Assembly: GCA_027448865.1 (NCBI GenBank)
Contig: DAIDMR010000069.1
Location: 23,931 to 87,930 of the forward strand
Direction: 5' to 3'
From: Vampirovibrio sp.
GTDB lineage: Bacteria; Cyanobacteriota; Vampirovibrionia; Vampirovibrionales; Vampirovibrionaceae
Length of the DNA: 64,000 bases
Shown here piece by piece: positions 3,442 through 64,000 of the stretch. The notes beneath the pieces were generated by a model. It was not told the DNA's origin. It saw only the letters and a list, made by a program, of their open reading frames with translations, and did not search any database. Both the position numbers and the translations under genes were made by a program. How positions within the stretch are numbered: position 1 is the first letter of the stretch; every line of letters starts with the position of its first letter.

Positions 3442-3481
3442 ACATCGAAAACACGGAACCATAGAAAATCAGGAAAACCCT

Positions 3482-17438: not shown

Positions 17439-17776
17439 TGTCCCTGGTACCAATAGAATCACCCTACCCTTTCATACTACTTGGAGTACCGTTCATGAAG
17501 TCATTGTTTGAACCGAGGTCTCTGTCCGCAGTTTTGCTGTTGGTCGGCATTTGTCTTGCGATGTCGGGGTGTCAAAGAAGTCCTTCTATTGATATTTTCG
17601 GTTCTTTTTTCCCGGTATGGTTTTTTTGCATGCTGGGCGGACTGCTGATCACATTTGTGATTCGGTATTTCCTCAGACGTCTGCGGCTGGATCAGGAGAT
17701 GGGCCCCCTGGTCATTATTTACCCCTGTATGACCGCGTTGTTCTCTTTTATCCTTTGGCTGGTTTTTTTCCCTTGA
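17435..17776 (+). CDS. DUF1656/AaeX-like small membrane protein (true start probably internal, about 17495 or later)
   Basis: The C-terminal part IDIFGSFFPVWFFCMLGGLLITFVIRYFLRRLRL resembles AaeX (FPVIVVFG...LVRRVL), and it sits immediately upstream of the HlyD-like adaptor as in aaeXAB. A possible lipobox LAMSGC exists. The annotated start is the longest ORF, not necessarily the real one. Confidence 0.5.
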   Translation: MMSLVPIESPYPFILLGVPFMKSLFEPRSLSAVLLLVGICLAMSGCQRSPSIDIFGSFFPVWFFCMLGGLLITFVIRYFLRRLRLDQEMGPLVIIYPCMTALFSFILWLVFFP

Positions 17777-17797
17777 TTTGAAGAATATAGGTGCGTC

Positions 17798-18997: not shown

Positions 18998-19036
18998 GAA
19001 ACAATGAGTGCTAACAGCCTTAACTAATTACAGGAT

Positions 19037-35601: not shown

Positions 35602-38600
35602 TCCGCTGGCTGATTCAAACCTCTCTGCAATTGCGGATTGCCGTCGTTGCAATCACGGTGATTCTCATGTTTTTGGGCAGCCGTACTTTGATGGAATCCA
35701 CCGCTTTTGACGTGTTCCCGGAGTTTGCGCCGCTACTGGTTGAAGTGCAGACGGAAGCACAAGGACTTTCCACCACGGACGTAGAATCACTGATTACAGT
35801 ACCGATTGAAAATGCGCTCAGCGGAGTTGCCAAGCTGGATAAGATCCGCTCCAAATCGGTTTTGGGGCTATCGTCCGTAGTTCTTTATTTCCAGAAAGAT
35901 GCGAACCTAACCCAAGTCCGTCAATTGGTTCAGGAGCGTTTGACCCATCTTTCTGCCACGTTGCCCGTTGCCGCCAAGCCGCCGGTCATCCTATCGCCGT
36001 TATCCTCCACCAGCCGAGTCTTGAAAATCGGTATCTCTTCCAAAACCATGTCTCAGGTAGACATGACCACGCTGGCAAAGTGGACAATCCGGCCCCGGTT
36101 GATGGCCGTTCCGGGCGTGGCGAACGTAGCGATTTGGGGACAACGGGACCGGCAGTTTCAAATTCAGATTGATCCGGAGCGATTGAGAACGCACGGTGTC
36201 AGCGTCGATCAAATCGTGAAAGCGAGCCAGGACGCCTTGAGAATTGAGGGAGGCGGGTTTATTGATACACCGAACCAACGGCTTTCCGTTTCCCACATGA
36301 TGAACCTGAAATCAGCCCAGGATTTGGCAAAAATCCCAGTCGGTCTCAACAACGGTGTTCCTCTGAACCTGGATCGAGTGGCAACACTGACAGAGGGGTT
36401 TCCCCCGCCGATTGGGGATGCGGTGGTGAATCACGGGCCGGGACTTTTGCTCATTGTGGAAAAGCAGCCGTGGGGCAATACCCTGGAAGTGACTCATAAG
36501 GTGGAAGAGGCCCTGGATTCGCTCCGCCCTGGTTTGAAAGGACTGGAAATTGATTCCTCCATTTTCAGACCCGCCACGTTTATTGAAATGTCCTTGCACA
36601 ACCTGAACCATGCCATGTTGCTGGGATGCCTGCTTGTCATTCTAGTGCTGGCCTTTTTCCTGAACAACTGGCGAACCGCGCTAATTAGCGTTTTGGCGAT
36701 TCCAACATCTTTGCTGGTTGCGGCGCTTGTTCTTCAGTATCAAGGCGGGACATTGAACACAATGGTATTGGCCGGGCTGATTATCGCGCTCGGCGAAGTG
36801 GTGGATGACGCCATTATTGACGTGGAAAACATCATGCGGCGTCTGAAGCTGAACAAGGTGAGCGAGAACCCACAATCTGCCTTCATGGTTGTTATGAATG
36901 CTTCTCTTGAAGTCCGGAGCGCCGTTGTTTATGGCAGCGTGATCGTGGCCCTGGTATTGCTTCCCGTCTTGATGCTGGAAGGGGTGTCAGGGTCCTTCTT
37001 CAGGCCATTGGCTTTGTCTTATATGACCGCCATCATTGCTTCCCTGTTTGTGGCGTTGACACTGACACCCGCCTTGGCATTGCTGTTGCTCCCGAAGTCG
37101 GCGGGCGAGCAAAAGGAACCGCCTTTAGTGAATTGGCTCAAGCCTCGTTATGAAAAACACTTAACCCGATTGCTGGATCGCAAAAAGCAGGTCACAGGCA
37201 TCATGACGGCTACCATCATGACGGGGCTTTTGGCCTTGCCTTTTCTGGGAGAGGAGTTTTTGCCCCACTTCAAGGAATACGATTTCCTGATGCACTGGGT
37301 TGAAAAGCCGGGAACATCCATTGATGCCATGCGACGGATTACGATCCAAGTCAGCGATGAGTTGTTGGCAATACCGGGTGTCCGCAATTTCGGGGCACAT
37401 ATCGGACGGGCGGAAGTGGCTGATGAAGTAGTCGGCCCCAACTTTACTGAATTGTGGGTGAGCCTGGACCCAAAGGTGCCGTATGAAGCCACCGTAGCCA
37501 AAATCCAGAATGTGATTGACGGCTATCCGGGGCTATATCGGGATGTATTGACCTACCTGCGGGAACGTATCAAAGAGGTTTTGACGGGTTCCAGTGCAAC
37601 GCTTGTTGTCAGAATTTACGGGGATAACCTGGATGTTCTTCGGGACAAAGCCCAAGAAGTCTATGCCGCGATGAAACCCGTTAAAGGCGTGGTGGATCTG
37701 AAGGTTCAGCCGCAAGTCATGGTACCGCAAGTCGAGGTGCATGTCCGAAACGAAGCGGCTTCCCAATTCGGCATCACCCCCGGCGATATCCGCCGAACCG
37801 CCGGTATTTTCCTCAAGGGGATCAAAGTCGGCGAGTTTCATGAAGACCAGAATTCATTCGATATTGTGGTGACGGGTACACCGTCCATGCGTCAAGATTT
37901 ATCGGCCTTGCGGCAAGTTCTAATCACGACGCCCACCGGGGAAACCGTTCCCCTGAGAGACGTGGCGGATGTCATCATTGCCCCAACGCCCAACTTGATT
38001 TCAAGGGAAATGGCTTCCCGTTATACCGAAGTAACGTGCAACGTCGCCGGGCGGGATCTGGGAGGCGTGGCCCGTGACATTGAACAAAAGCTCAAGTCCG
38101 TCCCATTCGATAAAGGATACCATCCGGAATTGTTGGGCGAATATGCCGCACAGCAGGCTTCCAAAGACCGGCTCATGCTCTTTTCCTTCATCTCCCTGAT
38201 TGGCATCATGATCATTCTGCATGCCGACTTCCGTTCAATTCGCTTAACGCTTTTGATTCTGCTCAGTCTCCCCTTTGCATTGTTTGGCGGGTTAGTCGGC
38301 GTGATTCTGACCGGAGGGGTTTTGTCCTTGGGATCATTGATCGGGTTTGTCACGGTTTTGGGCATTGCCGCCCGGAACAGCATCATGCTCATCAGCCACT
38401 ACCGGCATCTTCAGCTAGAAGAGGGAAAACCGTTTGATGCCGCCATGATTATTCAGGGGGCCAAGGAACGGCTTTCACCTATTTTGATGACCGCATTAGC
38501 CGCCATGCTGGCCCTGTTACCACTGGTTTTCGGTGGTGAGAAGCCGGGACAAGAAATCGAACACCCAATGGCAATCGTGATTGTTGGCGGCTTGATCAGT

Positions 38601-38678
38601 TCAACGATCTTGAACTTGTTTATCCTTCCGGTCATGTATAGCCTTTTCGGTCAGCCGGAAGCGTGTGAAGCTGCATGA
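35598..38678 (+). CDS. Heavy-metal efflux RND pump (HME family, CusA/CzcA-like), 1026 aa
   Basis: It has a 12-TM RND architecture. The TM4 segment [19 protein letters not shown] is HME-RND type and the length matches CusA/CzcA. An adjacent cusRS-like two-component system is present. Confidence 0.9.
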
Positions 38679-39835: not shown

Positions 39836-40765
39836 TTAATCCTGCCGAAGTAATATCGCTTCCAACCGCTCCAGTTGTTGGGCATGTTTTGCAGGAGCCT
39901 GAGTTATCAAGCGCTGAATGTTTTTAAGTTTCCATTGAACAGCGGGTAAATCCTTCAGAGCAGGGACTGGAACCAGTTCCCAATCGGGATTACCTTGCTT
40001 GAAACTGATCAGGAATTGTCGTTCCACTTCGCTGAGCCAGGCGGAAACTTCTTGGAACAGCCTTTCTCGGGTTGATAGATAATCTTCATAACTGAAAGGA
40101 ACCATGGTCATACCAGCAAACTGAGCATGATAAGCGGCTTCCTGGTCTTGATGTCTGGGACTGAGTATTTCATTAATGGGTCTCGGTGAACTGATGAGGC
40201 ATGTAATAAACCCAAGCCGTAGCTCGTCAGACAGCCCTTCATTCTCCAACAGGTAATAGATGTCAAAAAGGTCACGGGGATGTTGTCGATCTAGGGCGGC
40301 ACAGATCTTGCCACCAAACAGCTCGGCATGAGAAACCACGCTAATTGCAGCAAACTTGCCAAACTCCTCTTGAACCTTTTCGCTCACCTGCATAAGCCGA
40401 GATGGCACGATCGCTCCACGAAGAGTGGTATTAACTTCGATTTTAATTTGAGCAGATGGACTCTGGCAGGATAACTTCGCGTGTTGACCATCACTCTGTT
40501 GAACTGGTGTAACACGGACAGCAGGCAGGGTGCTTTCAATTCGGTTCTTGATCCGGCCCAGCGATTCAGTAATTTCCTCAAGTGCCTGCTGCCGGTTGTG
40601 AAAAGGAAGATAGGTTAAATCGATATCGACCGATAACCGTGGTAAATCTCGCACAAATAGATTAATGGCAGTGCCCCCTTTCAGGGCAAAGCACGCTTCG
40701 GTTGCCACATGCGGAAGAACCTGAAGTAGCAGCTCGACTTGTGCTCGGTATACCGCTGAAATCAT
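39836..40765 (-). CDS. AbiEii-like nucleotidyltransferase toxin (type IV TA / abortive infection), 309 aa
   Basis: It has the nucleotidyltransferase-fold motif GGTAINLFVRDLPRLSVDIDL (GSx9-13DxD pattern). It is located 4 bp-overlapped downstream of an AbiEi-like gene. Confidence 0.75.
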   Translation of the reverse strand: MISAVYRAQVELLLQVLPHVATEACFALKGGTAINLFVRDLPRLSVDIDLTYLPFHNRQQALEEITESLGRIKNRIESTLPAVRVTPVQQSDGQHAKLSCQSPSAQIKIEVNTTLRGAIVPSRLMQVSEKVQEEFGKFAAISVVSHAELFGGKICAALDRQHPRDLFDIYYLLENEGLSDELRLGFITCLISSPRPINEILSPRHQDQEAAYHAQFAGMTMVPFSYEDYLSTRERLFQEVSAWLSEVERQFLISFKQGNPDWELVPVPALKDLPAVQWKLKNIQRLITQAPAKHAQQLERLEAILLRQD

Positions 40766-41574
40766 AGCTCGGCCAGCTCCTTCGGGATGGTGATTTGGAA
40801 TTCAGCGTCAAAAACCCCACCTTTCACCAAACTGCGTTTCCCCTTGCCCAGATCAAGCTGCCCGAGGTTGATAAATTGCAACCACTGATGTCCAGCTTTT
40901 TGGGCCATGTAAAGAAAGAGTCGTTTAACCTTGATGGACGTGCAGTACTCCAGCATGTCTTGCAGCAGTTTGGGGCGTAGATTAACCATCCCTTCCATTA
41001 AGTGATAACACTCGACCAGATCCAGGTCATCCGGGGTCAAAAACAGACACTCCAGGATGGCGCGTTCAGGGGCCGATATCCATATATGAAAGGTCTTGCT
41101 TTCATACCTAATCAGGCCGATGTCCGGCGGGAGAAACGACGTTCTGACTGATCGAATGGAAGCCTTCAGGTCTGCCTTTTTGAACCACTGGGGAATATTG
41201 ACGTTTGTGGGGAGGAATAGAAATATCTCCTCTGTACCAGTTCGCAGATAATGGGATAGCCCTTGCATGGATAGGGCTGTAAGAGCACCCGCATGGATGG
41301 ACAAGCACGCCTGTGCCTGGAGGGCATAGAGCGCTCCCTGCCAGTGAAGTTCATCTGCAGGACGCTTGAAGGCTCCGGGGCCGACCGTCTCCAGCCAGCC
41401 GCTCTTTCGATAACGTTTTTGCAAATCTCTGGAGATGCCTAATTCCTCTAGCCAAGAGGCTAGGCAGACTGTGCCTGGTTTATGCTCGTTCAGGAATTGG
41501 TTTAATTTCTGTGATTTTTGGGTACTCATAGTACCAATATACTGGTTTTTATGAACCAACACAAGGCACTTCAT
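40762..41574 (-). CDS. AbiEi-like antitoxin/transcriptional autoregulator; alternative start at 41529 (MSTQ...)
   Basis: It is of AbiEi size and sits immediately upstream of the AbiEii-like nucleotidyltransferase. Two 15-bp palindromes GGTACTnATAGTACC lie at its 5' end, and one of them overlaps an internal ATG. Confidence 0.7.
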   Translation of the reverse strand: MKCLVLVHKNQYIGTMSTQKSQKLNQFLNEHKPGTVCLASWLEELGISRDLQKRYRKSGWLETVGPGAFKRPADELHWQGALYALQAQACLSIHAGALTALSMQGLSHYLRTGTEEIFLFLPTNVNIPQWFKKADLKASIRSVRTSFLPPDIGLIRYESKTFHIWISAPERAILECLFLTPDDLDLVECYHLMEGMVNLRPKLLQDMLEYCTSIKVKRLFLYMAQKAGHQWLQFINLGQLDLGKGKRSLVKGGVFDAEFQITIPKELAEL

Positions 41575-52364: not shown

Positions 52365-52556
52365 ATGAACATTCATCAACCGAATCAACCTGTAATCAGT
52401 CGTGATATGACAGATTTTGGGGTTCCCGGCGTGGTAATTGAGGTGGATCCGATTGAAGCTGAAGCCTGGGGATCCTTTGAGGAAACCGCCATTACCGAAC
52501 AAGACGCCATTGACTCAGAAATAGATGTTGAATTGGATGTGGAGGCTGCCCAATGA
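52365..52556 (+). CDS. Small highly acidic protein (63 aa) translationally coupled to the ArdC-primase gene
   Basis: It has a plausible RBS (aggaggaaaaaataATG), a C-terminal half that is almost pure D/E (EAEAWGSFEETAITEQDAIDSEIDVELDVEAAQ), and a stop that overlaps the downstream start (ATGA). Confidence 0.4.
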   Translation: MNIHQPNQPVISRDMTDFGVPGVVIEVDPIEAEAWGSFEETAITEQDAIDSEIDVELDVEAAQ

Positions 52557-54757
52557 GCGATTACGCCAAAACCGTGTCTGAATCTATCATTAGGCAACTA
52601 CAAGAGGGAACCGCCCCATGGCTACGACCCTGGCAAACTGGAGAACGTTATCTTCCGTTTAACCCAACCACGGGCAATGCATATAAGGGCATTAACGCCA
52701 TTTGGTTGCTCTCTATTACGGAAGCCAGAGGCTATGGGGATACCCGCTGGATGACCTATAAGCAAGCGAGCAGTCTGGACGCTCAAGTGAACAAAGGCGA
52801 AAAAGGAACCATGATCCAGTTCTGGAAGTGGCACGATGAAATTCTGAAGCGGGATGATGAAGGCAAGCCAGTTTTGGATGAAAATGGTAATCCAGCCAAA
52901 GTTTTGATACGCCTACAATGCCCTAAAGTTCGTACTGCAATCGTCTTTAATGCCCAGCAAATCAACGGTTTACCGGCTATTGAAAACAAAGCCCTCCTCA
53001 CTGAGTGGGAGCGCCACCTGGAAGCCGAAGCCATCTTGAAGGATTCCCAAGCCAGGATTGAGCACGTACCAGGAAACCGGGCCTTTTACCGGCCATCCAG
53101 CGATAGCATTACACTGCCACTCAGAGAGCAATTTCCTACGGCAGATAATTATTATGCAACCGCTCTGCATGAATTGGGCCATTGGACCGGGCATGAGTCC
53201 AGGCTGAATCGTGACATCAAGCATCCGTTTGGTTCGGAGGCTTATGCCAAAGAAGAATTGCGGGCGGAAATCGCGTCCCTGATGCTGGGTGAAAAACTCA
53301 GTATCGGGCACGATCCAGGGCAGCATGTTGCCTATATTGGATCCTGGATCAAGGCGTTAGAGGAAGACCCGCGAGAAATTTTCAGGGCGTCAGCCGATGC
53401 TGAAAAAATCACCCAGTATCTTCTGGGCCGTGAAATGCAAAAGGTCCAGAGCCAAGACATTGAAGAACAGGCAAAAATTCAAGTGCCTGTATTAAAAATT
53501 CAGGAGGAGAGTGCATTGAGAACTACGCCTGAGCGGGTCTATTTGGATGTCCCCTATGCCGAAAAAGAGGCAGTCAAGAAACTAGGAGCCAAGTGGGACC
53601 GACAGGAGAAATCCTGGTATGTTCCGGCAGGCATTGCGTTAGAACCCTTGAAACAATGGTTAAAGAGTCAAAATACGGTTTCCAAGGATCCACAGGCCGA
53701 GTTTGCCTCAGCACTGCAAGAGGCAGGCTTACAGTTGAAAGGCTTACCCATTATGGATGGAAAGCTGCATCGAGTCCCTGTAGAAGGTGATAAGCACGGT
53801 CAAAAGAATGGCGGGTATGTTGGCTTTATGGACGGGCATCCTGCAGGCTACATCAACAACTACAAAACAGGTCTGGAAACCACTTGGAAATCAGAACAGC
53901 CGGTGAATCGTTTAAGTGACAGTGAGCGCTTGCGTCTGGAGCAAGAAGCTACGCAACGGCAATTGAAACGGGCACAGGAAAGAGAGGAGCTTCAAACTCA
54001 AACTGCGGATTTGGTGGCCGATTGCTGGCTGAACGCTGCCCCCGCGCAAAATCACCCGTATTTGGACCGAAAAAGTGTTCAAGCCCATGGCTTAAGAGTC
54101 AATACCTGTGGCTCGGTGGAAATTGGTCATGCTCAGCCTGATGAGCCCGCCCAGCAATGGAGTGGTCATGGAGAATTGCTCATCCCCATTGTCGACATCA
54201 ATGGCCGCTTCTGGGGTGCCCAATCCATTGATGATCAAGGGCGTAAGAGTTTCCCTCGGGGTGGCCGGATTCAGGGCGGGCACCACGTGTTAGGGCATAT
54301 CCAAGAGGGGCAGCCCATTTTAATTGCAGAAGGGTACGCCACTGCCGCGACGGTGCATGAATCTTCGGGACTGCCGGTTGTGGTGGCGTTTAATTCTGGA
54401 AACGTGCCGGTTGTCGCGCAAGCGTTTCGAGACAAGCACCCAGCCAGCACATTGGTAATTGCCGGGGATAACGATCACAGCAAACCAATTGAGAAGAATG
54501 TCGGACTCCAGAAAGCCCAAGAGGCCGCTCAAAAGGTGGATGGTCATCTGCTACTGCCTGAATTTGAAAAAGGCTCAACAGGAACAGACTGGAATGATTT
54601 GGCTCAGGAAAAGGGAAAAGATGCAGTTCGGCTTCAGTTGCAAGTAGGTATATCGCTCATCAAGGCGCAAGCCAAGCCGTTCATACAACAAGTCTCATCC
54701 GCTCTTGAGGCGAAAGTCAATCTCACTCCCACGAAGCCTCAGGCCTTGACGCGATGA
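52553..54757 (+). CDS. ArdC-like antirestriction/ssDNA-binding N-domain plus zincin-like metallopeptidase plus C-terminal TOPRIM primase domain (TraC-like), 734 aa
   Basis: It has an ArdC N-terminal domain and the HExxH metallopeptidase motif ALHELGHWTGH. The C-terminal region has Toprim-like acidic motifs (LIAEGYATAATV..., VIAGDNDH). The fusion architecture is common on conjugative elements. Confidence 0.75.
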   Translation: MSDYAKTVSESIIRQLQEGTAPWLRPWQTGERYLPFNPTTGNAYKGINAIWLLSITEARGYGDTRWMTYKQASSLDAQVNKGEKGTMIQFWKWHDEILKRDDEGKPVLDENGNPAKVLIRLQCPKVRTAIVFNAQQINGLPAIENKALLTEWERHLEAEAILKDSQARIEHVPGNRAFYRPSSDSITLPLREQFPTADNYYATALHELGHWTGHESRLNRDIKHPFGSEAYAKEELRAEIASLMLGEKLSIGHDPGQHVAYIGSWIKALEEDPREIFRASADAEKITQYLLGREMQKVQSQDIEEQAKIQVPVLKIQEESALRTTPERVYLDVPYAEKEAVKKLGAKWDRQEKSWYVPAGIALEPLKQWLKSQNTVSKDPQAEFASALQEAGLQLKGLPIMDGKLHRVPVEGDKHGQKNGGYVGFMDGHPAGYINNYKTGLETTWKSEQPVNRLSDSERLRLEQEATQRQLKRAQEREELQTQTADLVADCWLNAAPAQNHPYLDRKSVQAHGLRVNTCGSVEIGHAQPDEPAQQWSGHGELLIPIVDINGRFWGAQSIDDQGRKSFPRGGRIQGGHHVLGHIQEGQPILIAEGYATAATVHESSGLPVVVAFNSGNVPVVAQAFRDKHPASTLVIAGDNDHSKPIEKNVGLQKAQEAAQKVDGHLLLPEFEKGSTGTDWNDLAQEKGKDAVRLQLQVGISLIKAQAKPFIQQVSSALEAKVNLTPTKPQALTR

Positions 54758-54983: not shown

Positions 54984-56111
54984 TTGATTAGACCAGAGAG
55001 GCTTCGAGTGGCTGGGGAAATTAGAAATAGCCAAGATGCTTTTACGTTCCAGGATATACCCGAGCCAAACAGTGTTATTGCTACCGCTGCAAAGATTCAA
55101 TTTGGGAAGCCCATCCCTCCTCAGCAGCAGGTCTTCCTATATAGCGCTGATGAATGGGAGTATTTCATCGAAGAGTGGGTGCATAGCCAGAAACAAAATT
55201 ATACAAAGGTTCGTCGATATGCTGGCGCTAATGACATGGGCATTGACGTTGCTGGATTTGTTGATGATACTGGTCTCCAAAGTGATTGGGACAATTTTCA
55301 ATGTAAGCACTATGATGGTGCACTAGCCCCCAGTACAGCAGCGGCTGAGGTGGCAAAAATTCTTTGGCATTCATTTCAAGGTAAATATATACCCCCACGC
55401 GCTTACTATTTTATAGCTCCTAAAGGTTGCGGGACTAGTCTCTCCAGGCTTTTAGACAACCCATCAAACTTGAAGAAGCATATTATAGAGAAGTGGGATA
55501 AGCAGTGTGCAAAGGCAATCACTGCAACACGAGTGATCCTTCTTGAAGAATCCTTTCTTGCCTATATAAACAATTTTGATTTCTCAATATTTAAGGCTCG
55601 CACTTTATTGGAGATTATCGATGACCATCGCAAGACTCCCTATTATGCTAATAGATTTGGAGGTGGATTGCCCGATAGGCCCATAGTGAAACGGCCTCCT
55701 GAGAATCTGGCAGATGGAGAAAGTCGTTATATTGAGCAACTTTTTGAAGCCTATAGCGATCATACAAAAAGTGAAGTCACACACCTGGAAAGTTTGAGGA
55801 GCGATCTGATTGATCATTATCATCGGCAACGAGAAACGTTTTATCACGCCGAAGCCCTGCGGAATTTCTCACGAGATACTGTTCCACCTGGCACGTTTGA
55901 GCAACTACAAGATGAGGTTCATGCCGGAGTGATTGACATTGAGGGACTTTTACACGCCGATGGGTATGCTCGTTTAAATGAAATCCTCAAGTCAGCCACG
56001 CAGCTTCAAATGACCTCAAATGCCCTGATGAGTGTTGTGAAAATCCAGGATAGAAAAGGAATCTGTCATCAGCTCTCTAACGAAGACCGTTTGCGCTGGA
56101 GGAAGCCATGA
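54984..56111 (+). CDS. Putative effector of a Lamassu/ABC-3C-like defence cassette: N-terminal PD-(D/E)xK-like nuclease motifs plus C-terminal helical domain, 375 aa (TTG start; GTG at 55008 is an alternative)
   Basis: It has the E-D-QxK pattern (DEWEYFIEEW ... GIDVAGFVDD ... DNFQCKHY) with restriction-endonuclease-fold spacing. Its stop overlaps the next gene by 4 bp, and its GC is lower than the flanking trb/tra genes. Confidence 0.5.
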   Translation: MIRPERLRVAGEIRNSQDAFTFQDIPEPNSVIATAAKIQFGKPIPPQQQVFLYSADEWEYFIEEWVHSQKQNYTKVRRYAGANDMGIDVAGFVDDTGLQSDWDNFQCKHYDGALAPSTAAAEVAKILWHSFQGKYIPPRAYYFIAPKGCGTSLSRLLDNPSNLKKHIIEKWDKQCAKAITATRVILLEESFLAYINNFDFSIFKARTLLEIIDDHRKTPYYANRFGGGLPDRPIVKRPPENLADGESRYIEQLFEAYSDHTKSEVTHLESLRSDLIDHYHRQRETFYHAEALRNFSRDTVPPGTFEQLQDEVHAGVIDIEGLLHADGYARLNEILKSATQLQMTSNALMSVVKIQDRKGICHQLSNEDRLRWRKP

Positions 56112-56602
56112 AAGCTGCAAATCATTTGAGCCCTTTCAATGGACCACTAGAGGCTGGGATTCGAGCACTGGGCATTCTCCTTCCCGCATTTCCTCGTTCT
56201 TTTGACTTGCAACGTCTGGTAGCACTTGACCACTTGGTTGTGCATACCGGAGATGTAGGAGGACCAGAGAGCCTTCACCCTCCACTTCCTCTTCGCTCTG
56301 CGGAGCTGACTATCCGTCGCTCTGTAGTCGAGCGAGGCATTCTGCTTATGGTGAATCGAGGATTAATTGAACGAGTTATGGATGATACGGGGCTAAGCTA
56401 TCGTGCTGGAGATTTAGCACAAACATTCATGTCAACTCTATCTGCCGATTATCTCATTGCCCTTCAAGAGCGTGGTGAATGGGTAGTTTCCACTTTTGCA
56501 GATCTGGATGATGATCAACTTCGCCAAACCATAGGTGATCTGTTTGGACGCTGGATTGAGGAGTTTCAGGCAACACAGCGCAGCATGGCATTAGGAGTAT
56601 AA
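56108..56602 (+). CDS. Small helical middle component (LmuC / ABC-3C MC-like), 164 aa
   Basis: It is translationally coupled on both sides (ATGA overlap upstream, 4-bp gap downstream). Its size and helical character match ABC-3C middle components. Confidence 0.45.
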   Translation: MKAANHLSPFNGPLEAGIRALGILLPAFPRSFDLQRLVALDHLVVHTGDVGGPESLHPPLPLRSAELTIRRSVVERGILLMVNRGLIERVMDDTGLSYRAGDLAQTFMSTLSADYLIALQERGEWVVSTFADLDDDQLRQTIGDLFGRWIEEFQATQRSMALGV

Positions 56603-56606
56603 CAAT

Positions 56607-58451
56607 ATGCCAACTCGTTTAATACTTCGTCATCTCTGCTTTACAGGACCGGATCAACCACCAGCGATTCTTACATTTGAGCGTGGTCTAAACGTACTTT
56701 ATGGGGCATCAGATACTGGAAAGTCTTTTGTTCTAGAAGCTATTGACTTTATGTTGGGTGGTAAAAAACCCCTTAGAGACATAAAAGAACGGATTGGATA
56801 CGATAAGGTATTTCTTGGCATAGAGACGACGGATGGTTCTATATTTACACTGTATAGAAGTACAAGTGGTGGAAGCTTTTATCTGTTTGAAGGATTGCAT
56901 CAATCATTTCCCCAAGATGTAGAAGCTCTCTCGCTTGCACCGCAGCATAAGAAAGGTAAAGATGATAGTCTGTCTAGCTTCCTGCTAGAAATAGTGGGAC
57001 TTAACGGCAAAAAAATCAGGAAGAATAATAAAGGCATAAACCAACAATTTACCTTCCGTAACCTTGCAAGGTTTTGTGTTGTTGCAGAAGGAGCTATTCA
57101 AGACCAACGCTCTCCTATTGAAAGTGGACAAGCCATTTCAGAAACCGCAGAATATTCAGCATTTAAGCTTCTGCTGACTGGCCTTGATGATAGTGCGATC
57201 ATTCCTGCACAGAAAAATTCTACCCTTTCACAATCTCAAGCAGGCAAACTTGAGATCCTTGATGAAATTCTTTCCAATCTCAAAGAGAAATTTTCTGGTG
57301 CCCTACCTGCCGCTGAGGAACTAGATGAAGCCTTGGCAAAACATGAGTCTATGATTGCTATTGAGTTCCAAAATCTTCAATCATCGGAGAGTGAATACCA
57401 GATACTTGTTTCCCGTAGGGATTCGTTACGCTTTAAGCTTCAAAATGGAGTCGAGCGTCGCGGCGAAATTCAAGACTTGCATACCAGATTTGCTCTGCTT
57501 GATCAACACTACCAATCCGACCTTTCAAGATTGGCTAGTATCCGAGAAGCCGGTTCTCTTATGGCTGTATTGCCAGAGCATACATGCTCGCTTTGTGGTG
57601 CTGAACCTAAGGATCAGCACAAAAAATCTGACTGCGATGGCAATATAGAAGCTGTAGTTTCTGCCTCTGATGCAGAGAGTGCTAAGATACTATTGCTTCG
57701 TAGGGAGCTTAACGATACCATTGCCCAACTAAAACAAGAAGCTGACGGTTTTGACCATTTAATACCAAATCTTCGAGGCGAACTAGCGACGATTGAAGAG
57801 CAGATTAAGCCTTTAAGACCTGCTTTAATAGAGCGTCGGATATACTATGCCAATCTAGTTGATGGAAGGGCAGCTATCCGTAATGAGCTTGCACTGTATG
57901 ACCAGTTAGTAGAACTTCAGACTCGTCGCAGTAAAATCCAAGTTCTACTTGAAGCAGAGGGGAATACGTCTCAACCAACTACTGATTTTCCAATATCAGT
58001 TCTAGATGAATTTGCTCAACAGATAGAGCGAGTGCTCAAAGCATGGCATTTACCCGGAGCCGAACGAGTACAATTCAACGAGACAGACCGTGACCTTATT
58101 ATTGATGGCAGTAGACGAGGAAGCCATGGCAAAGGCATGCGTTCCATTACCCATGCTGCGTTTACAATTGGACTTTTAGAATATTGTAAAAGCAAGAATC
58201 TACCCCACCCTGGCTTCATAGTGCTGGATTCCCCTCTGCTTGCATATCGCCAGCCTGAGGGGGATGAGGATGATCTTCGGGGTACTGATGTGCAAGATCG
58301 ATTCTATGAATATTTAGCACAATGGGAAGATGCTCAAGTGCTAATTATTGAAAACGTTACCCCTCCTGATGCAGTTCAGAAATCACCAACAACCCAAATT
58401 TTCACTGGAAACCATAATTTAGGTCGTTATGGATTTTTTCCAGATCTCTAA
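56607..58451 (+). CDS. SMC/ABC-type ATPase with long coiled-coil and CxxC hook-like apex (LmuB / ABC-3C ATPase-like), 614 aa
   Basis: It has an N-terminal Walker A (LNVLYGASDTGKSFVLEAIDFMLGG) and a C-terminal Walker B-like motif (GFIVLDSPLLAY). About 270 aa of heptad-rich sequence lie between them, with CSLCGAEPKDQHKKSDC at the midpoint. This is Rad50/SMC-like head-coil-hook-coil-head topology. Confidence 0.65.
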   Translation: MPTRLILRHLCFTGPDQPPAILTFERGLNVLYGASDTGKSFVLEAIDFMLGGKKPLRDIKERIGYDKVFLGIETTDGSIFTLYRSTSGGSFYLFEGLHQSFPQDVEALSLAPQHKKGKDDSLSSFLLEIVGLNGKKIRKNNKGINQQFTFRNLARFCVVAEGAIQDQRSPIESGQAISETAEYSAFKLLLTGLDDSAIIPAQKNSTLSQSQAGKLEILDEILSNLKEKFSGALPAAEELDEALAKHESMIAIEFQNLQSSESEYQILVSRRDSLRFKLQNGVERRGEIQDLHTRFALLDQHYQSDLSRLASIREAGSLMAVLPEHTCSLCGAEPKDQHKKSDCDGNIEAVVSASDAESAKILLLRRELNDTIAQLKQEADGFDHLIPNLRGELATIEEQIKPLRPALIERRIYYANLVDGRAAIRNELALYDQLVELQTRRSKIQVLLEAEGNTSQPTTDFPISVLDEFAQQIERVLKAWHLPGAERVQFNETDRDLIIDGSRRGSHGKGMRSITHAAFTIGLLEYCKSKNLPHPGFIVLDSPLLAYRQPEGDEDDLRGTDVQDRFYEYLAQWEDAQVLIIENVTPPDAVQKSPTTQIFTGNHNLGRYGFFPDL

Positions 58452-58661: not shown

Positions 58662-59270
58662 CTATGAGGGTAATTTCCAGGCTAAATAGCCAATACACTT
58701 TATTTGTTGAAGTGAGATAGGCCCAAAATAACGGCTGTCCAGGCTATTTCTATGGTAAGGCGAAATCAGCCAAACTTCCCCTTGTTTCACCCGATAGTCA
58801 CCGGGATTGAGTTGGGGCAAAGGTAAGCTAGTCCGGCCAAAGCTCTGTGATTGGCTTTTAGGGAGCCACTTCCCATTGATGGCTATACCTTGAGGTGTTA
58901 TTGAAACGATATCGTTTGAAACGGCTGCCACGGGCTTCATAAGATGGCTATAACCACCAGGACAATCGCCATCGGGAATGTAACCTCGTTGCTTGGCGAT
59001 TCGAAAGAAAGGTTTATCTGGCGGGCAAAGCCAGACAAACTGTCCCCTCCGAATAGGGCCATGAATAGGTTCCACCTTCCAAATGCCTGGCGGAACGGAG
59101 GGCGTGGTAATAATTCGGTAGCCTTGAGCATAAAATAGCCCTAGAAAGCTCCCAATGAGGGCAACCGCAATAAAATATCGAATTAACAGCAACTTCATCG
59201 GGCTTGTATTGGCGGTTGTTGGATCCGCTCCAATACCACAGGCTGGACCCGATGTTTGGTAGCAGGGCAT
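58662..59270 (-). CDS. traF: Conjugative transfer signal peptidase TraF (S26 family); likely start at 59198 (MKLLLIRYF...)
   Basis: It has an N-terminal TM, an S26-type catalytic region, and the TraF-specific C-terminal motif (…GDYRVKQGEVWLISPYHRNSLDSRYFGPI…). It is directly downstream of traG. Confidence 0.8.
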   Translation of the reverse strand: MPCYQTSGPACGIGADPTTANTSPMKLLLIRYFIAVALIGSFLGLFYAQGYRIITTPSVPPGIWKVEPIHGPIRRGQFVWLCPPDKPFFRIAKQRGYIPDGDCPGGYSHLMKPVAAVSNDIVSITPQGIAINGKWLPKSQSQSFGRTSLPLPQLNPGDYRVKQGEVWLISPYHRNSLDSRYFGPISLQQIKCIGYLAWKLPS

Positions 59271-61156
59271 GTGGAACTTTCACTTGAAGACGCCAAACCG
59301 CCCGCATGTTTAAGCCGGATTTGCTTGGCATCCAAGATTTTATCTGACTGTTTGGGTGGACCAATTTTGGCGGCTTCCTTAAACCAGGGATCCCGGAAAT
59401 ATAGGATTTGGGTTCCTTTGATGGGGGCATGGCCCGCTGCAAAAATCAGCATTTCTCCTGGGTTTTGGATGTTTCCCAGTCGGTCTTTTCGTGGGGCTTT
59501 TAACCGCATTACCTCATCCGGGGTCATTAGGGGACGCCCTAGGGAGTGAAACGAACGGCTGACTTGCCCTAACATCCCGCTAGAGCGTTTCCCAGAGCTA
59601 GTGTAATCCTCCTTGACCACGGTGGCCTGTCCCAGTAATTTAGATAACCATTCTGCCGTCAGCACGTTATTGGGCGCGTATGCCACTCGGATGTGACAGT
59701 TAGCCAGAATGCTTTCGTTTTGGCCGTATGCGGCCTGAAGTTGGGCGATATCCTGCATGATGAGATAGGCTTTCATTCCATAACCAGCAATGAACGCCAG
59801 AGCCTCTTGAAAGATTTCCAGACGGCCAAAAGTCGGGAACTCATCCAACATTAATAGTAGGCGCTGTTCATAGGATTTGGCAGGCTGGCCGCCTTCAAAC
59901 TTTTGCTCATCACGAGTTAAAACTCGGACAATCTGGTTCAGAATTAGGCGCATTAAAGGTTTCAGCCGGTCTTTATCTGCCGGGCGCACAACCAGATAAA
60001 GTGAAACCGCGTGTTTTTGATGCATCAGGTCATGAATGGAAAAGTCACTGCGGCTAATGTTTCGGGCCACCAACGGATCCCGGTAAATGGTTAAAAAGGC
60101 CTGGGCAGAGGAAAGCACCGAGCCCCGTTCCTGCTCTGGCCGGTTTAGCATATCCTGGCCCGCTGCCGCTACCACTTGCCGAGCCGTTTGGCTGCTGTGC
60201 TGGTTTTCAACCATTTCTTGATACAGCGCATCAATGGGCCGTGTCGGATCCGAGATGGCATAGGCCACCTCTGATAAACTGGCTTTTTTATCAGTCTTGT
60301 AAATCAGATGCAAAATGAGACCGGTTAAAAACGCATGCGCGGTCTTGGCCCAGTGATCCACCAGGCCTTTTCCATCAGGGTCGACAATAATATTGGCCAG
60401 GTTTTGCACATCCCCCACTTCCGTCACGCCTAGGCGTACCTCATCCAGAGGGTTAAAAGCGCAACTGCCTCTTTCAGACGCCGGATCAAACTTCAGAACG
60501 GTACCATTCAGCTCATGTTTTCGGTAACCCGCCGTTAAATTCCAGAGTTCTGCCTTCATATCATTGACCACCACCGAATGCGGCCATGTCAGTAAGGTGG
60601 GAACGACCAGGCCCACACCCTTTCCAGACCGTGTGGGCGCAATGGCTGCAATATGCTCAGGTCCATTGTGCCGTAGGTAATGAAGTCGTTTCTTCTGATC
60701 CATCCAGCCGCCTACATACACCCCGGCGCTGGAGTCATGGGAATTGGGCAATAGGCCGGTGTCTTCAATTTCTTCTTGGGCGGCAAAATGGGCGGTGCCA
60801 TGTACGTCCTGGTGTCCTTGGGGATTTCGTGCCCGTACATTCAACAGGGTCGAGTATGAAAAAATGGTTATTCCCAGCGTTAAAAGCAGGAAAACGTTGA
60901 CCACTGAAAACGTTTGAGGACCATTGTCGGCAAACTGAGCCTGCCAAACTAGCCAATTCCAGGGCGCGTAAAAATGATCAAACCAAGGATTTCCCAGCGC
61001 TAGCTCATAGTGAAAACGCTCGGCCACAAACTGAGTGGCCATTATGCTGGCCAGAAGTAGGACAAAAGCAATGACAGTAAAATCCAGTGACGTCTGAGTT
61101 CTTGTGGCTGCTTTGGTCATCGCCCTCGTCCTTTCGCTTGCCCTTGGCGCTGCCAT
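59195..61156 (-). CDS. traG: Type IV coupling protein TraG (VirD4 family), 653 aa
   Basis: It has two N-terminal TMs and the Walker A APTRSGKGVGLVVPTLL. Size and context follow the relaxase gene. Confidence 0.9.
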   Translation of the reverse strand: MAAPRASERTRAMTKAATRTQTSLDFTVIAFVLLLASIMATQFVAERFHYELALGNPWFDHFYAPWNWLVWQAQFADNGPQTFSVVNVFLLLTLGITIFSYSTLLNVRARNPQGHQDVHGTAHFAAQEEIEDTGLLPNSHDSSAGVYVGGWMDQKKRLHYLRHNGPEHIAAIAPTRSGKGVGLVVPTLLTWPHSVVVNDMKAELWNLTAGYRKHELNGTVLKFDPASERGSCAFNPLDEVRLGVTEVGDVQNLANIIVDPDGKGLVDHWAKTAHAFLTGLILHLIYKTDKKASLSEVAYAISDPTRPIDALYQEMVENQHSSQTARQVVAAAGQDMLNRPEQERGSVLSSAQAFLTIYRDPLVARNISRSDFSIHDLMHQKHAVSLYLVVRPADKDRLKPLMRLILNQIVRVLTRDEQKFEGGQPAKSYEQRLLLMLDEFPTFGRLEIFQEALAFIAGYGMKAYLIMQDIAQLQAAYGQNESILANCHIRVAYAPNNVLTAEWLSKLLGQATVVKEDYTSSGKRSSGMLGQVSRSFHSLGRPLMTPDEVMRLKAPRKDRLGNIQNPGEMLIFAAGHAPIKGTQILYFRDPWFKEAAKIGPPKQSDKILDAKQIRLKHAGGLASSSESSTCPATKHRVQPVVLERIQQPPIQAR

Positions 61157-63081
61157 TGCCCTTTTTCATCCAGTTGAATCGTTTGCCCCACTGAAAGGCT
61201 TCTGAAGTCTTGTAATCGTTGAACAGGTTTCACCAGCATGGCTGCCTGGGTTTCTAGAAGGACTGCTTCAGAGCCATCCGTTAGAGTGCGCCGTCCTTGA
61301 TAAATCACGGTACCTTTATCTTGAGCGGTCCACGCCCGATGGGGTTTTAGGTTCTGGACGCGTTCCCGCACCAGGTTACGCTCGGTGATGTACGCTTGCA
61401 GTGCTGGCGATATTGAGCCATCTGCAAACAAAGAGGACTGCTTCGCTTGTTCTATTAGCTGCTGCCGCTCTTGTTCCAGTGCTTCATCCTTGAAAGTCAC
61501 TGCCATCTGATGTTGAGCGGCCAACTGAACAAGGTGCCGTTTGAAATCCGAGCTGCCTTGTACATCCAGTGGCTGATTCTGGAAGCGTTCAGCGGCCATT
61601 GTCAAAGCCAAAAGTATTGATCCGACGGTTACGGTGCCTACCGATACCAACTGCTTTTCATCGGTCACAGAACCACCATCCTGAACTTGGTAGACCAAAT
61701 CCCCGTTTTTTCGAATATAGGGCTTCAAGTCCTGGTAGATGAGATGCTTGGCTTGAGTCAGGTCATCCGCCGTTAATAGGGCTTTTTCAAAGTTTGCTTG
61801 CCTGGTTTTGCGCTGGCGCAGTAGCTCAAGTGCCTTACTATTCCCCTGCTCCGCCTGCTGAATCAGGAACTGCTCCCAAGTTAGTACGGGATGCTTGGCT
61901 TTTGATGCCTGCTTTTGGTGTTTTATCGATTGACTATGTGTTTGCAAGGCTGATTGTCGAGCTTGGGCCAATTGCTGGTAAGCTAGTCGTTTAGCTTGCC
62001 TACTTTGGCTGGATTGCTTAATTTTTAGGCGCTCTTGAGCATGCCAAGTTTTTAATTGCTGGGCAAATAGTGCTTTTTCCTCTGTTATTCTTTCTTTGAG
62101 CTGGCTTTTGACCAACCAGGCCGCTTGTTTTTGGGATTGAAAGTCAGAATGAAGTGCTTGGGTCGCCTCATCTGTTTGTTTAAGACTTTTTTGGTAAGCC
62201 CTCTTTGGATTTTCCAGCGCTGGATCGGGAGATTGAGAGTTTACAGGTGGTTCATATGGGCCGAAACGCTCCGTCAATGCCTTGAACGACAGGCTTTTAT
62301 CCACGGAACTGGCTTTGACACCCATGGAACCATCGCCAAGGGCAATCACCAGTCCGGCCCCACGGGGTTTTATCATTAAGCCATACTCAGCCATTGCCTG
62401 GTGTAGCCCGTCCCAACTTTTGCCCTCTTTGACAGCCTGAAGCAGGTCTGGTTTGGCCTCCGCCTGTATCCAGCCTAGCAAGGTTTGTTCACCAATATGA
62501 GCCTCAAGGGCATGGGCTTTTCCATACCGTTGCCCCTGCCCCATCCCGTTATCAACCGTCAAGCCGTGTTTATGCTCCAGGGCTCGGCAGGCCTTATCCC
62601 GAATATAGTAATCCCGATAAGGTTCATGGAGTTTAAAAGTCGCTGGATGCACCTTATTGATGGCCAAATGCAGATGAATATTATCTGTATCCTGGTGTAC
62701 CGCACTAATTCGCTGGTGTTCTCCAAAGCCTAATGCGTCGCACATTTGGTCTTCAATGTCTTCCAGTTGCGCTCGGGAAGGCTGCTCGCCTTCCGGGAAT
62801 GAAATCACACAATGATAGGTCTTATCCGCTTGAGAGCGCGTATTCTGGGACTGGGTGACCAGCACTTCTGCGATGGCCATTGCCGGAATTTCAGCCTCGC
62901 AATTGGAAAGTCGGTACCAAAGCACCTTCTCCCCTTCGGTTTCCGCTTTTAGATCCACCACGTATTCTGCGGTTCGGGTCCAAAGTATGGTCGAGGCATC
63001 ATTCTTGGCCTCCAGCACATACCGGCCCAGTCGGTCAAAATCCGAGGTTTTCAGTTTCCGATCAATGCGCTTGGAAATCAT
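61117..63081 (-). CDS. traI: MobP-family relaxase TraI (RP4 TraI-like), 654 aa
   Basis: It has relaxase motif III HQDTDNIHLHLAINKV (compare RP4 HTDTDNLHIHIAINKI) and the N-terminal motif I region with a candidate catalytic Tyr. The C-terminal region is Q/K-rich. Confidence 0.9.
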   Translation of the reverse strand: MISKRIDRKLKTSDFDRLGRYVLEAKNDASTILWTRTAEYVVDLKAETEGEKVLWYRLSNCEAEIPAMAIAEVLVTQSQNTRSQADKTYHCVISFPEGEQPSRAQLEDIEDQMCDALGFGEHQRISAVHQDTDNIHLHLAINKVHPATFKLHEPYRDYYIRDKACRALEHKHGLTVDNGMGQGQRYGKAHALEAHIGEQTLLGWIQAEAKPDLLQAVKEGKSWDGLHQAMAEYGLMIKPRGAGLVIALGDGSMGVKASSVDKSLSFKALTERFGPYEPPVNSQSPDPALENPKRAYQKSLKQTDEATQALHSDFQSQKQAAWLVKSQLKERITEEKALFAQQLKTWHAQERLKIKQSSQSRQAKRLAYQQLAQARQSALQTHSQSIKHQKQASKAKHPVLTWEQFLIQQAEQGNSKALELLRQRKTRQANFEKALLTADDLTQAKHLIYQDLKPYIRKNGDLVYQVQDGGSVTDEKQLVSVGTVTVGSILLALTMAAERFQNQPLDVQGSSDFKRHLVQLAAQHQMAVTFKDEALEQERQQLIEQAKQSSLFADGSISPALQAYITERNLVRERVQNLKPHRAWTAQDKGTVIYQGRRTLTDGSEAVLLETQAAMLVKPVQRLQDFRSLSVGQTIQLDEKGQWQRQGQAKGRGR

Positions 63082-63431
63082 AAGCGCTTTTTCTCAGTCA
63101 TCACAATATGAGCCAATTCCAGTTGAAGCGACTCTATTTGCTGGAGTACCGAACGCACATTGCTTGTGTTCAGACCTTCTCCTTTCCTTTCTGTCAGCCA
63201 AAGTTTGAGCAGCCCTCCCAATCGGCCTTGATCCGCATGGAGTTTAATAAGCATCGCAATGGCCTCTTTATCAAAGGCGCTTTTGGGTTCAAACCCCAAA
63301 GCCAGAGAGCGCATTAAGGTACTGGGAGCCAGCTTGACAGCCTTTGCCCGGTGTTCAATCTCCGCACGTTCGCGAGCGGAAACATAGACTTTGATTGGAT
63401 GTAGGCGGTCTCGGCACTCCCGAACGGCCAT
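63078..63431 (-). CDS. Relaxosome accessory protein (TraJ/MobC-like), 117 aa
   Basis: It is a small basic protein encoded between oriT and the relaxase gene, with a 4-bp overlap with traI, as RP4 traJ is. Confidence 0.55.
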   Translation of the reverse strand: MAVRECRDRLHPIKVYVSARERAEIEHRAKAVKLAPSTLMRSLALGFEPKSAFDKEAIAMLIKLHADQGRLGGLLKLWLTERKGEGLNTSNVRSVLQQIESLQLELAHIVMTEKKRL

Positions 63432-63815
63432 TGTATTTCCCCTTAAAATTTAAACCACTTGAATCACTTGGCGGTAGCCAATCAGGACTCGCGTTGAGGG
63501 GTTCCCCCGAATAAGCGCTTTGTATTGGAGGGGTGCAAGCTGTGCTTGTAGGCCTACAATACCTGTCCTGCCATTTTTATTTATGAAAATCTGTGCAAAA
63601 GTATGCAATATTCATGTCACACCGGTCTTTTTCATGCAACATTTGCATTGTATTGCACTGTTTTGCATAGTTTTTCGGAGTTTTGCGTTGTTTTGCATTC
63701 TTGAAAAGGCCAAACTATGCAAATCTATGCAAACCTTGTCAAAAAATGTATCCCGTGCTATCGTTCGCATGCTTTCGCCAGCACAGACTCTATTTTTCAT
63801 TTCTAGAGGGTTTCA
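63432..63815. promoter_or_regulatory. Putative origin of transfer (oriT) with IncP-like nic motif and phased TGCA-core repeats
   Basis: ACCTGTCCTG/CC at 63561-63572 resembles the IncP nic region ACCTATCCTG/CCC. It is preceded by the imperfect inverted repeat TGCAAGCtgtGCTTGTA (63534-63550). At least 10 TTGCA/ATGCAA-type repeats lie between 63594 and 63733. The region sits between divergent relaxosome genes. Confidence 0.55.
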
Positions 63816-64000
63816 TGAATCAAACAACCAAGGGCCAATATGGCCTGGGACGCATCACGTTTAAAGCACATTTTGCAGAGATTCAGCAAGAAATTGAAGC
63901 GGGTTATCCGCTAACCCAGGTCTACGAAAAGCGAAAAGACAAGCTTGGGATCGCATATACCCAATTTACCCGCTACGTGGGCAAATATATCACGGGAGAA
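63816..64000 (+). CDS. 5' part of a gene divergent from traJ across oriT (TraK-position gene), partial
   Basis: An open frame from ATG 63816 to the window end (MNQTTKGQYGLGRITFKAHFAEIQQEIEAGYPL...) is preceded by the purine-rich stretch agagggtttc. Confidence 0.4.

Follow-up and report, generated by a model that had tools for sequence, protein, structure and literature searches.

The DNA considered here is a stretch of 64,000 nucleotides from Vampirovibrio sp. (contig DAIDMR010000069.1; hereafter, the window), and its subject is a 384 bp gap (region 63432–63815) that separates two divergent genes, traJ and traK, of a Trb/Tra-type conjugative element. On the left of the gap lies a minus-strand relaxase operon consisting of traJ, traI, traG and traF, and on the right the leader operon starts on the plus strand with traK. 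The gap itself contains a small palindrome, a conserved core that includes an inverted copy of the nick hexamer, an inverted repeat, a predicted nick site (nic) and an array of short phased repeats extending toward traK (Table 1). This arrangement points to an origin of transfer (oriT) of the IncP type.

Table 1. Features of the traJ–traK gap and flanking genes (window positions; a slash, here and in the text, marks the predicted cut)
Feature	Position	Strand	Description
traF	58662–59270	−	signal peptidase
traG	59195–61156	−	coupling protein
traI	61117–63081	−	MOBP relaxase, 654 amino acids (aa)
traJ	63078–63431	−	117-aa NikA-like ribbon-helix-helix accessory protein; predicted binder of the inverted repeat
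Small palindrome	63468–63481		TTGGC-GGTA-GCCAA; just upstream of traJ
oriT core	63476–63573	−	Rfam RF01760 'traJ-II', whole model (positions 1–104)
Distal nick-hexamer copy	63483–63488	+	CAGGAC; outer stem of the RF01760 model
Conserved block	63492–63498	+	CGTTGAG; invariant in the window, two relatives, the IncP-alpha plasmid and R751
Conserved block	63509–63515	+	GAATAAG; invariant in the same sequences
Inverted repeat, left arm	63522–63540	+	GTATTGGAGGGGTGCAAGC; from repeat search; 15/19 positions pair with the right arm
Inverted repeat, right arm	63544–63562	+	GCTTGTAGGCCTACAATAC; ends 8 nt before nic; predicted TraJ-binding arm
Nick region	63563–63572	+	CTGTCCTG/CC; predicted cut G63570/C63571 on the + (transferred) strand
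Nick hexamer	63565–63570	+	GTCCTG
Array	63591–63744		about twelve 10-bp units, consensus TTTTGCAYWG, in both orientations; predicted TraK binding/wrapping region
Inverted units, first group	63591, 63601, 63632		
Forward units	63641, 63651, 63661, 63671, 63681, 63691		unit at 63671 degenerate
Inverted units, last group	63715, 63725, 63735		unit at 63735 degenerate
Candidate leftward promoter	63714–63742	−	TTGACA, 17-nt spacer, CATAGT; consensus scan 10/12
Candidate traK promoter	63736–63764	+	TTGTCA, 17-nt spacer, TATCGT preceded by TG; consensus scan 9/12
traK, 5′ part	63815–64000	+	62 codons, cut by the window end; GAGGG ribosome-binding site before the start

TraI is a relaxase of the MOBP type. 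It scores 457.7 bits with the NCBIfam model TraI_MobP_relax (TraI/MobA(P) relaxase; equivalog cutoff 250), contains the Pfam domains Relaxase, TraI_middle and TraI-like_C, and is 34% identical to R751 TraI (E = 2e-85). A candidate catalytic Tyr in LGRYV near the N terminus, NTRSQADKTYH and HQDTDNIHLHLAINKVHP line up with the three relaxase motifs of R751 TraI (Tyr, NTRSxADKTYH, HxDTDNxHxHxAINK). The motif HQDTDNIHLHLAINKV, which a first-pass annotation of this DNA had quoted for TraI, is present, as is the 117-aa TraJ-like protein that it had listed. TraJ matches Pfam NikA-like (E = 2.5e-14), reaches 86 bits with NCBIfam TraJ, which is under the equivalog cutoff of 134, and is 32% identical to R751 TraJ. 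The functions of traG and traF are assigned by profile searches, and a trb mating-pair operon lies at 41.8–52.3 kb of the window; the reading frames of traI, traJ, traG, traF and the trb genes are all intact.

The fragment of TraK encoded in the window scores 28.5 bits with Pfam DUF5338 (gathering threshold 25.9) and is 33% identical over this domain to R751 TraK (BLASTP E = 5e-8). DUF5338 can be equated with the TraK family, because the TraK proteins of R751 and IncP-alpha score 100 bits each with this model and plasmid matches to the fragment are annotated 'TraK family protein'. IncP-alpha is represented in these comparisons by pBS228, and R388 by NC_028464. In a scan of one genome per species, eight related loci turned up, of which seven cover the oriT region; all belong to assemblies of Vampirovibrio chlorellavorus or Melainabacteria, and their TraI is 64–95% identical to that of the window. 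In these relatives traK encodes 111–118 aa and is followed by traL and traM; their TraL, which lies outside the window, matches CbiA/ParA-type P-loop ATPases (E = 9e-9). The TraK-family proteins of L002–L009, L001, L010, L011 and L013–L016 have a common build: about 60 aa at the N terminus form a helical domain, a linker rich in Pro, Ala and Lys follows, and the C terminus is a short, conserved tail of acidic and hydrophobic character (e.g., ...TPLADSELF, ...KKEDLL, ...RDDLI), which may be a partner-binding peptide.

The core of the gap corresponds to a known family. A covariance model search detects Rfam RF01760 at 50.7 bits (curated gathering score 40), and this is the sole Rfam match above threshold in the 64-kb window. 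The same family matches 15 of 15 IncP-type origins compared, including R751 (111.7 bits), IncP-alpha (112.6 bits) and 13 other TraJ/TraK-flanked origins, and in RK2/RP4 the traJ-II sequence is the same as the oriT defined earlier (PMC6206304). Rfam types RF01760 as a cis-regulatory RNA; given that it matches all 15 IncP-type origins tested, the family is at least partly a DNA origin catalogued as RNA, as already stated in PMC6206304.

Within this core, the first-pass annotation had described a 12-mer at 63561–63572 as one base off the nic region of both RP4 and R751. The 12-mer (ACCTGTCCTGCC) is found exactly there, one base away from the IncP-alpha sequence ACCTATCCTGCC; the latter was checked against pBS228 and is 100% identical to that of real IncP-alpha plasmids. 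R751, however, reads CACACATCCTGCC, so that the sequence quoted as IncP belongs to RP4 only. The short motif YRTCCTGY is not significant alone (12 occurrences in the window versus 13.7 expected). No second copy of the 17-mer ACAATACCTGTCCTGCC exists in the window, even when three mismatches are allowed, and it is the surroundings of the short motif that set it apart; the nick region aligns with the nick of RP4 and of R751. Cleavage is predicted on the plus strand between G63570 and C63571, in which case the traK side would enter the recipient first; the nick-spanning sequence of the predicted TraI substrate is ...ACAATACCTGTCCTGCCATT..., or GGCCTACAATACCTGTCCTGCCATTTTTAT in oligonucleotide form.

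An inverted repeat had likewise been reported about 11 bp from nic. The repeat (TGCAAGC tgt GCTTGTA) does exist, but it forms just the centre of a longer one, in which two 19-nt arms are separated by a 3-nt loop and the right arm ends 8 nt from nic. In RP4, TraJ binds a 19-bp inverted repeat located 8 bp from nic (PMC7314908). This geometry, with 19-nt arms, a loop of 2–5 nt and exactly 8 nt to the nick, is found in 16 of 16 origins. Between 14 and 19 of the 19 positions pair in each, with two or three Watson–Crick types at most positions, and the arms of L009 differ from those of the window yet pair at 19/19. Arm pairs were counted by script; MAFFT applied to the repeat-plus-nick segment placed gaps in the left arm.

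A blastn search of 63000–64000 against plasmids gave no match because similarity at the DNA level is too remote, and protein searches were therefore used. Alignment with the IncP-alpha plasmid and R751, the check that had been proposed for this region, nevertheless reveals the common blocks GGCGGTAGCC, CGTTGAG, GAATAAG and TCCTGCC, of which GGCGGTAGCC is invariant in alignments with both the relatives and IncP-1. The common blocks, the RF01760 match and the RP4 geometry together support homology of the region to IncP oriT, beyond motif likeness. The IncP-1 counterpart of the palindrome upstream of traJ is GCCGGC-GGTA-GCCGGC, and its arms vary but remain complementary in IncP-1 and in plasmid relatives (e.g., AGTCGC-GGCA-GCGACT). 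At about 63481–63483, a segment of about 14 bp (GCCAGYCTCGCAGAG) is absent in the window and in L002–L005; it is present, near-identical to that of IncP-1, in L006, L007 and L009.

The nick hexamer is GTCCTG, not the ATCCTG (within YATCCTGY) of IncP-1, which RP4 TraI and VirD2 require in vitro (PMC3772185), and the site is for this reason filed as an IncP-type rather than an IncP-1 origin. The variant is shared by the window and all seven oriT-bearing relatives (8/8), in which the nick core reads TGTCCTGC. The whole nick region is identical in the window and L002–L007 and is ATGTCCTG/CC in L009, with TGTCCTG/CC invariant in 8/8. An exact reverse complement of the locus's own nick hexamer is found 77–84 nt upstream in 15 of 16 loci, and the two elements co-vary in three states: ATCCTG with CAGGAT in IncP-1, GTCCTG with CAGGAC in the window and its relatives, and ATCTTG with CAAGAT in six environmental plasmids. 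The latter are Nitrosospira pNRS527-1, unnamed plasmids of N. europaea, P. viciae and Synechocystis B12, Azospirillum TSA2s p3, and a Stenotrophomonas plasmid whose neighbor gene is not annotated traJ. Because the hexamer is fixed and is matched in the distal copy, the one-base difference is best explained as a compensated lineage variant and not as decay. The covariation could reflect DNA pairing, RNA pairing in the traJ leader or two protein sites.

Between nic and traK, at least ten TTGCA-type repeats at helical spacing had been claimed, and ten cores are indeed found (nine TGCA and one TGCG, at 63594, 63604, 63635, 63644, 63654, 63664, 63684, 63694, 63718 and 63728), seven of them in one 10-bp register. 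TGCA occurs nine times in 63590–63740 (151 bp) versus 0.57 expected from its frequency in the window, a 16-fold excess, and this segment is the densest TGCAA/TTGCA cluster in the 64 kb. Tandem Repeats Finder assigns a period of 10 to the array, self-identity at lag 10 is 0.45 versus about 0.26 at other lags (z = 6.2), and the units line up when the sequence is printed in rows of ten from the nick. When the 64 kb were scanned for AA/TT periodicity (10–10.5 bp), the fifteen strongest 120-bp segments all fell within 63566–63780, and intrinsic curvature is predicted from this helical periodicity.

The units are also specific to this place. A position weight matrix finds 11 matches in 190 bp here and 83 in the other 63.8 kb, where the sole cluster is a weak three-match one at 2387–2482; such restriction to the array favors a local factor over a global regulator. 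An operator set of a global regulator was rejected on the same ground, no comparable unit cluster being found elsewhere in the 64 kb. L002 and L005 show one T-to-C change shared by almost all of their units, whether forward or inverted, so that the unit reads TTTCGCRYTG; this concerted change points to a binding-site array under selection. L002, L003 and L004 each have a gap of exactly one 10-bp unit, plus smaller indels. Two intergenic open reading frames, 63520–63864 (+) and 63612–63800 (−), were discarded as genes because the 10-bp indels in the relatives would disrupt their frames. Sub-threshold Rfam matches to microRNA precursors (mir-19, mir-3613 and others) at 63652–63746 are probably artefacts of the inverted arrangement of the units.

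The array had been described as more regular than that of RP4, with an additional function as a possible consequence. Its lag-10 identity is in fact higher than that of RP4 (0.33) and R751 (0.32), but such regularity is typical of TraK-family origins other than IncP-1 (Azospirillum, 0.47; N. europaea, 0.43; Synechocystis, 0.38), and no extra function is therefore needed to account for it. Phased arrays occur in every TraK-family origin examined, each with its own unit. In RP4, TraK binds about 200 bp of intrinsically curved DNA between nic and traK and acts as a repressor of both traJ and traK (PMC7314908, PMC3098194). The position of the array, its phasing, its predicted curvature and the fact that its motif changes with traK support its assignment as a putative TraK-binding array.

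The last of these points comes from natural recombinants. Relative to the window, L005 is the closest locus in TraJ (94%) and TraI (95%), has a TraK that is only 70% identical, and carries a different array motif, TTCGC; L003 and L004 are 85–87% identical in TraJ, 88% in TraI and 95% in TraK, and carry the same array motif, TTTGCA. The array motif thus goes with traK and not with traJ or traI. At 300 informative sites, the window tracks L005/L002 over 61100–63520 and L003/L004 over 63583–64000, and the switch interval (63521–63582) contains the right arm and the predicted nick. The window is therefore a mosaic of an L005/L002 lineage (traI, traJ and left oriT) and an L003/L004 lineage (array and traK). 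A junction at nic would fit either an exchange of two origins mediated by the relaxase or homologous recombination within the stretch that is conserved most.

Compared with IncP-1 (RP4/RK2 and R751), the locus has in common the divergent traJ/traK position, the 19-nt inverted repeat with its short loop 8 nt from nic, TCCTG/CC at the nick, the distal inverted copy of the hexamer, the blocks GGCGGTAGCC, CGTTGAG and GAATAAG, the curved nic–traK region and, in the relatives of the window, the traK–traL–traM leading operon. It differs in its hexamer (GTCCTG versus ATCCTG), in the absence of about 14 bp (GCCAGCCTCGCAGAG in IncP-1), in proteins that are only 32–34% identical, and in an array that is far more regular (0.45 versus 0.32–0.33) and has a clear TTGCA unit; no TraH, KorB or TrbA sites were identified at the window locus. 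The environmental plasmids resemble the window in the RF01760 core, the geometry, and the lineage-specific arrays phased at 10 bp between nic and traK (units TTGCA/TTCGC in the N. europaea plasmid). They differ from it in their hexamer pair, and their TraK proteins are 37–50% identical to that of the window over the visible domain.

Based on these data, the traJ–traK gap is probably the transfer origin of an IncP-like (Trb/Tra) conjugative element, a reading to which we assign a probability of about 0.78. It rests on the homology of the site and of its three flanking genes (traI, traJ and traK) to IncP, the repeat–nick geometry, the covariation, the phasing of the array and the linkage of the array to traK, and agrees in this with the IncP-like oriT proposed in the first-pass annotation, which RF01760, the common blocks and the flanking homologues also uphold. 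The origin is a clear but largely ordinary IncP-type example, with a variant nick core, in a Vampirovibrio-type element.

A mechanism can be outlined, in which, unless stated otherwise, the steps are inferred from RP4, including the exact nick position, the binding assignments and the regulatory effects. TraJ, as a ribbon-helix-helix protein, would bind the nic-proximal arm of the 19-nt inverted repeat and set the MOBP relaxase TraI on the adjacent 8-nt stretch, where TraI would cut the plus strand after G63570 and become covalently linked to C63571. The strand would then move in the 5′ to 3′ direction, with traK–traL–traM entering first and traI–traJ, the inverted repeat and nic last, and the hairpin and nic might serve termination at the end of transfer. 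The approximately 150 bp downstream of nic would form an array with intrinsic curvature, made up of about twelve 10-bp units that carry a TTGCA core. Several TraK molecules could bind to one helix face of it and wrap or bend the DNA, TraK being a small protein that belongs to the TraK/StbA lineage and resembles helix-turn-helix (HTH) proteins. TraK on the array would help relaxosome assembly and repress the divergent promoters in or next to the array. Two candidate promoters overlap at a TTGTCAA element (63736–63742); the block containing the putative traK promoter is kept in L002–L005, and transcription from the candidate leftward promoter, if real, would cross the array, nic and the inverted repeat in the direction of traJ.

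Several points weigh against this interpretation. The element is known here from its sequence alone, and cleavage of a site with a GTCCTG hexamer by the cognate TraI is assumed. The hairpin, as single-stranded DNA, has moderate stability (−10.6 kcal/mol, z = −1.95), and both promoters are consensus matches alone. The array adjoins traK, so that one recombination at nic would move both even without any functional tie between them. For TraK, just 62 codons are visible in the window; the BLASTP comparison of TraK with StbA is not significant (E = 0.065), and a Foldseek search of the TraK model against the PDB gives no significant match (best E, 2.6).

That model, an AlphaFold prediction for residues 1–61 made without a deep alignment, as the homologue search with the fragment found nothing, is a small helical domain (mean predicted local distance difference test score, 79) with helices at 11–28, 33–44 and 48–59. 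The order of the predicted helices resembles that of the tri-helical HTH described for StbA (bioRxiv 10.1101/2022.04.29.490116). The top matches in the Foldseek search, none of them significant, are homeodomain and Fis HTH domains, and a sequence search of the PDB with TraK found no match.

The relation to StbA bears on the alternative that survives best, namely that the array is a centromere-like segregation or positioning site, either as its main role or as a second one beside transfer, with TraK as binder and TraL as partner, in the manner of StbA–stbS–StbB of R388. StbA of R388 binds ten TTGCATCAT repeats that follow one another with an 11-bp period between nic and stbA and appear as ATGATGCAA on the strand shown; these repeats are required for plasmid stability, and the StbA–repeat complex also modulates conjugation (PMC3098194). 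StbA has been reported to be remotely homologous to RP4 TraK, and StbB, a protein of the ParA/MinD type, is homologous to RP4 TraL (PMC3098194). The window locus is similar in having about ten short repeats with a TTGCAT core, one per helical turn, between nic and the first gene of the leading region (the ATGCAA/TTGCAT core is common to both repeat types). This first gene codes for a small HTH-like protein and is followed, in the relatives of the window, by one for a CbiA/ParA-type P-loop ATPase of the ParA/MinD-like kind. In addition, no par or rep genes were found among the window open reading frames of at least 150 aa scanned against Pfam, a set that leaves out three at 34.4–39.4 kb.

R388 nevertheless differs in having a MOBF relaxase and no RF01760 match, and its repeats are 9 bp with a 2-bp spacer in two groups, each of five direct repeats, in contrast to about twelve 10-bp units of mixed orientation here; a segregation role has been shown only for R388. 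RP4 possesses a separate partition system, IncC/KorB, and its TraK is known as a relaxosome protein. StbA has no DUF5338 match and is not linked to TraK by BLASTP (see above), and the homology of StbA and TraK was reported only after seven PSI-BLAST iterations (PMC3098194). StbB, moreover, is dispensable for stability in R388 (PMC3098194). A centromere-like role is thus a tentative possibility, whether as the main function of the array or as one that it fulfils alongside TraK-dependent transfer, and in both forms we regard it as unlikely.

Less probable still is that the 63476–63573 core is a structured RNA in the 5′ untranslated region of traJ and that the covariation represents RNA pairing. 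RF01760 is typed as cis-regulatory and matches the traJ-sense strand, a leftward promoter-like site is present at 63742–63714, and the traJ transcript of RP4 starts 24 nt beyond nic and so includes nic and the inverted repeat (PMC7314908). The stem covariation fits RNA as well as DNA, but a DNA hairpin or a palindromic protein site accounts for it equally well; in RP4, experiments have defined this same sequence as the oriT (PMC6206304, PMC7314908), and a nick-type hexamer at a fixed 8-nt spacing is a relaxase feature. An RNA role, itself improbable, would in any case supplement oriT function and not replace it.

The possibility that the site is an inactive relic, with GTCCTG marking a dead origin, is raised by the altered first position in the hexamer needed by RP4 TraI and VirD2 (PMC3772185) and by the loss of the segment of about 14 bp that is found in IncP-1 and L006/L009. 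Decay of this kind is hard to reconcile with the invariance of GTCCTG in eight loci whose TraI proteins are 64–95% identical, with the matching change in the distal inverted copy, or with intact tra and trb reading frames, and the recombination junction at nic suggests that the site has been used. We therefore consider a dead origin very unlikely.

Trans-kingdom transfer of the Agrobacterium kind was proposed for Vampirovibrio-type predators by Soo et al. (2015; PMC4451040), and by extension a T-strand from this origin might be delivered through the type IV secretion system (T4SS) into algal prey, with the GTCCTG nick and the TraK/TraL array as adaptations. The closest relatives are all Vampirovibrio or Melainabacteria contigs, and an ankyrin-repeat protein is encoded on the element. 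T-DNA borders also have a MOBP-type nick with an ATCCTG/C core (PMC3772185, PMC3098194). The accessory proteins at the window locus, however, are of the TraJ/TraK type and not VirC or VirD1. Agrobacterium likewise has an accessory DNA-binding protein and a ParA-like ATPase acting beside the nick (overdrive, VirC1/VirC2). A second border-like nick site was sought in the 64-kb window by the 17-mer and Rfam scans and discarded, none being found, and the single nick-type site excludes a pair of borders there. All features match an ordinary bacterium-to-bacterium IncP-type origin, and delivery into algae accordingly seems very unlikely as an explanation of this site.

A reading of the array as iterons of an origin of vegetative replication, as had also been suggested, is hardly credible: the many short phased repeats are the sole point in its favor, but the units are 10 bp in both orientations and not direct repeats of 17–22 bp, the neighbors are traJ and traK with no adjacent rep gene, no Rep family was found by Pfam in the window open reading frames scanned, the array motif follows traK, and the same type of array stands at the same place on plasmids of different replicons (rep_cluster_429, rep_cluster_297 and IncP).

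As an IncP-type oriT, the site provides Vampirovibrio-type conjugative elements with a precise origin and a predicted nick position (G63570/C63571). The Vampirovibrio genome paper predicted that its conjugative plasmids are nicked at an origin of transfer but did not identify one, and the term oriT is absent from it (PMC4451040). A fragment of 400 bp could be used for mobilizable vectors or for probing what these systems transfer. Two natural specificity handles are available, namely the three-state covariation of the hexamer with its distal copy and the array motif that switches with traK across recombinants with a junction at nic. Phased arrays of short repeats appear to be general to TraK-family origins, which ties the RP4 TraK site to the centromere-like StbA site of R388.

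Other genes of the window are of interest in relation to the host. The Vampirovibrio T4SS and plasmids have been proposed to act in predation on Chlorella (PMC4451040). The ankyrin-repeat protein (603 aa; 24318–26129, −) shares the window with the conjugative genes and, since the relatives of the window occur in a bacterium that preys on eukaryotic algae, could be a candidate effector for secretion. An ABC-3C three-component system (CTD6, MC2 and an AAA/SMC-like ATPase) is located between the trb operon and traF, an AbiEi/AbiEii toxin–antitoxin pair upstream of trbB, and a fusion protein of ArdC-N, zincin peptidase and Toprim domains after trbI; jointly, these systems occupy 54984–58451 (+), 39836–41574 (−) and 52553–54757 (+). 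Efflux modules at 148–4969, 15981–21190 and 32855–38678 comprise an AcrB-type pump, three outer-membrane factors, HlyD and FUSC, plus a P-type ATPase, and agree with what has been written of a Vampirovibrio plasmid, namely that it 'encodes several efflux transporters' (PMC4451040).

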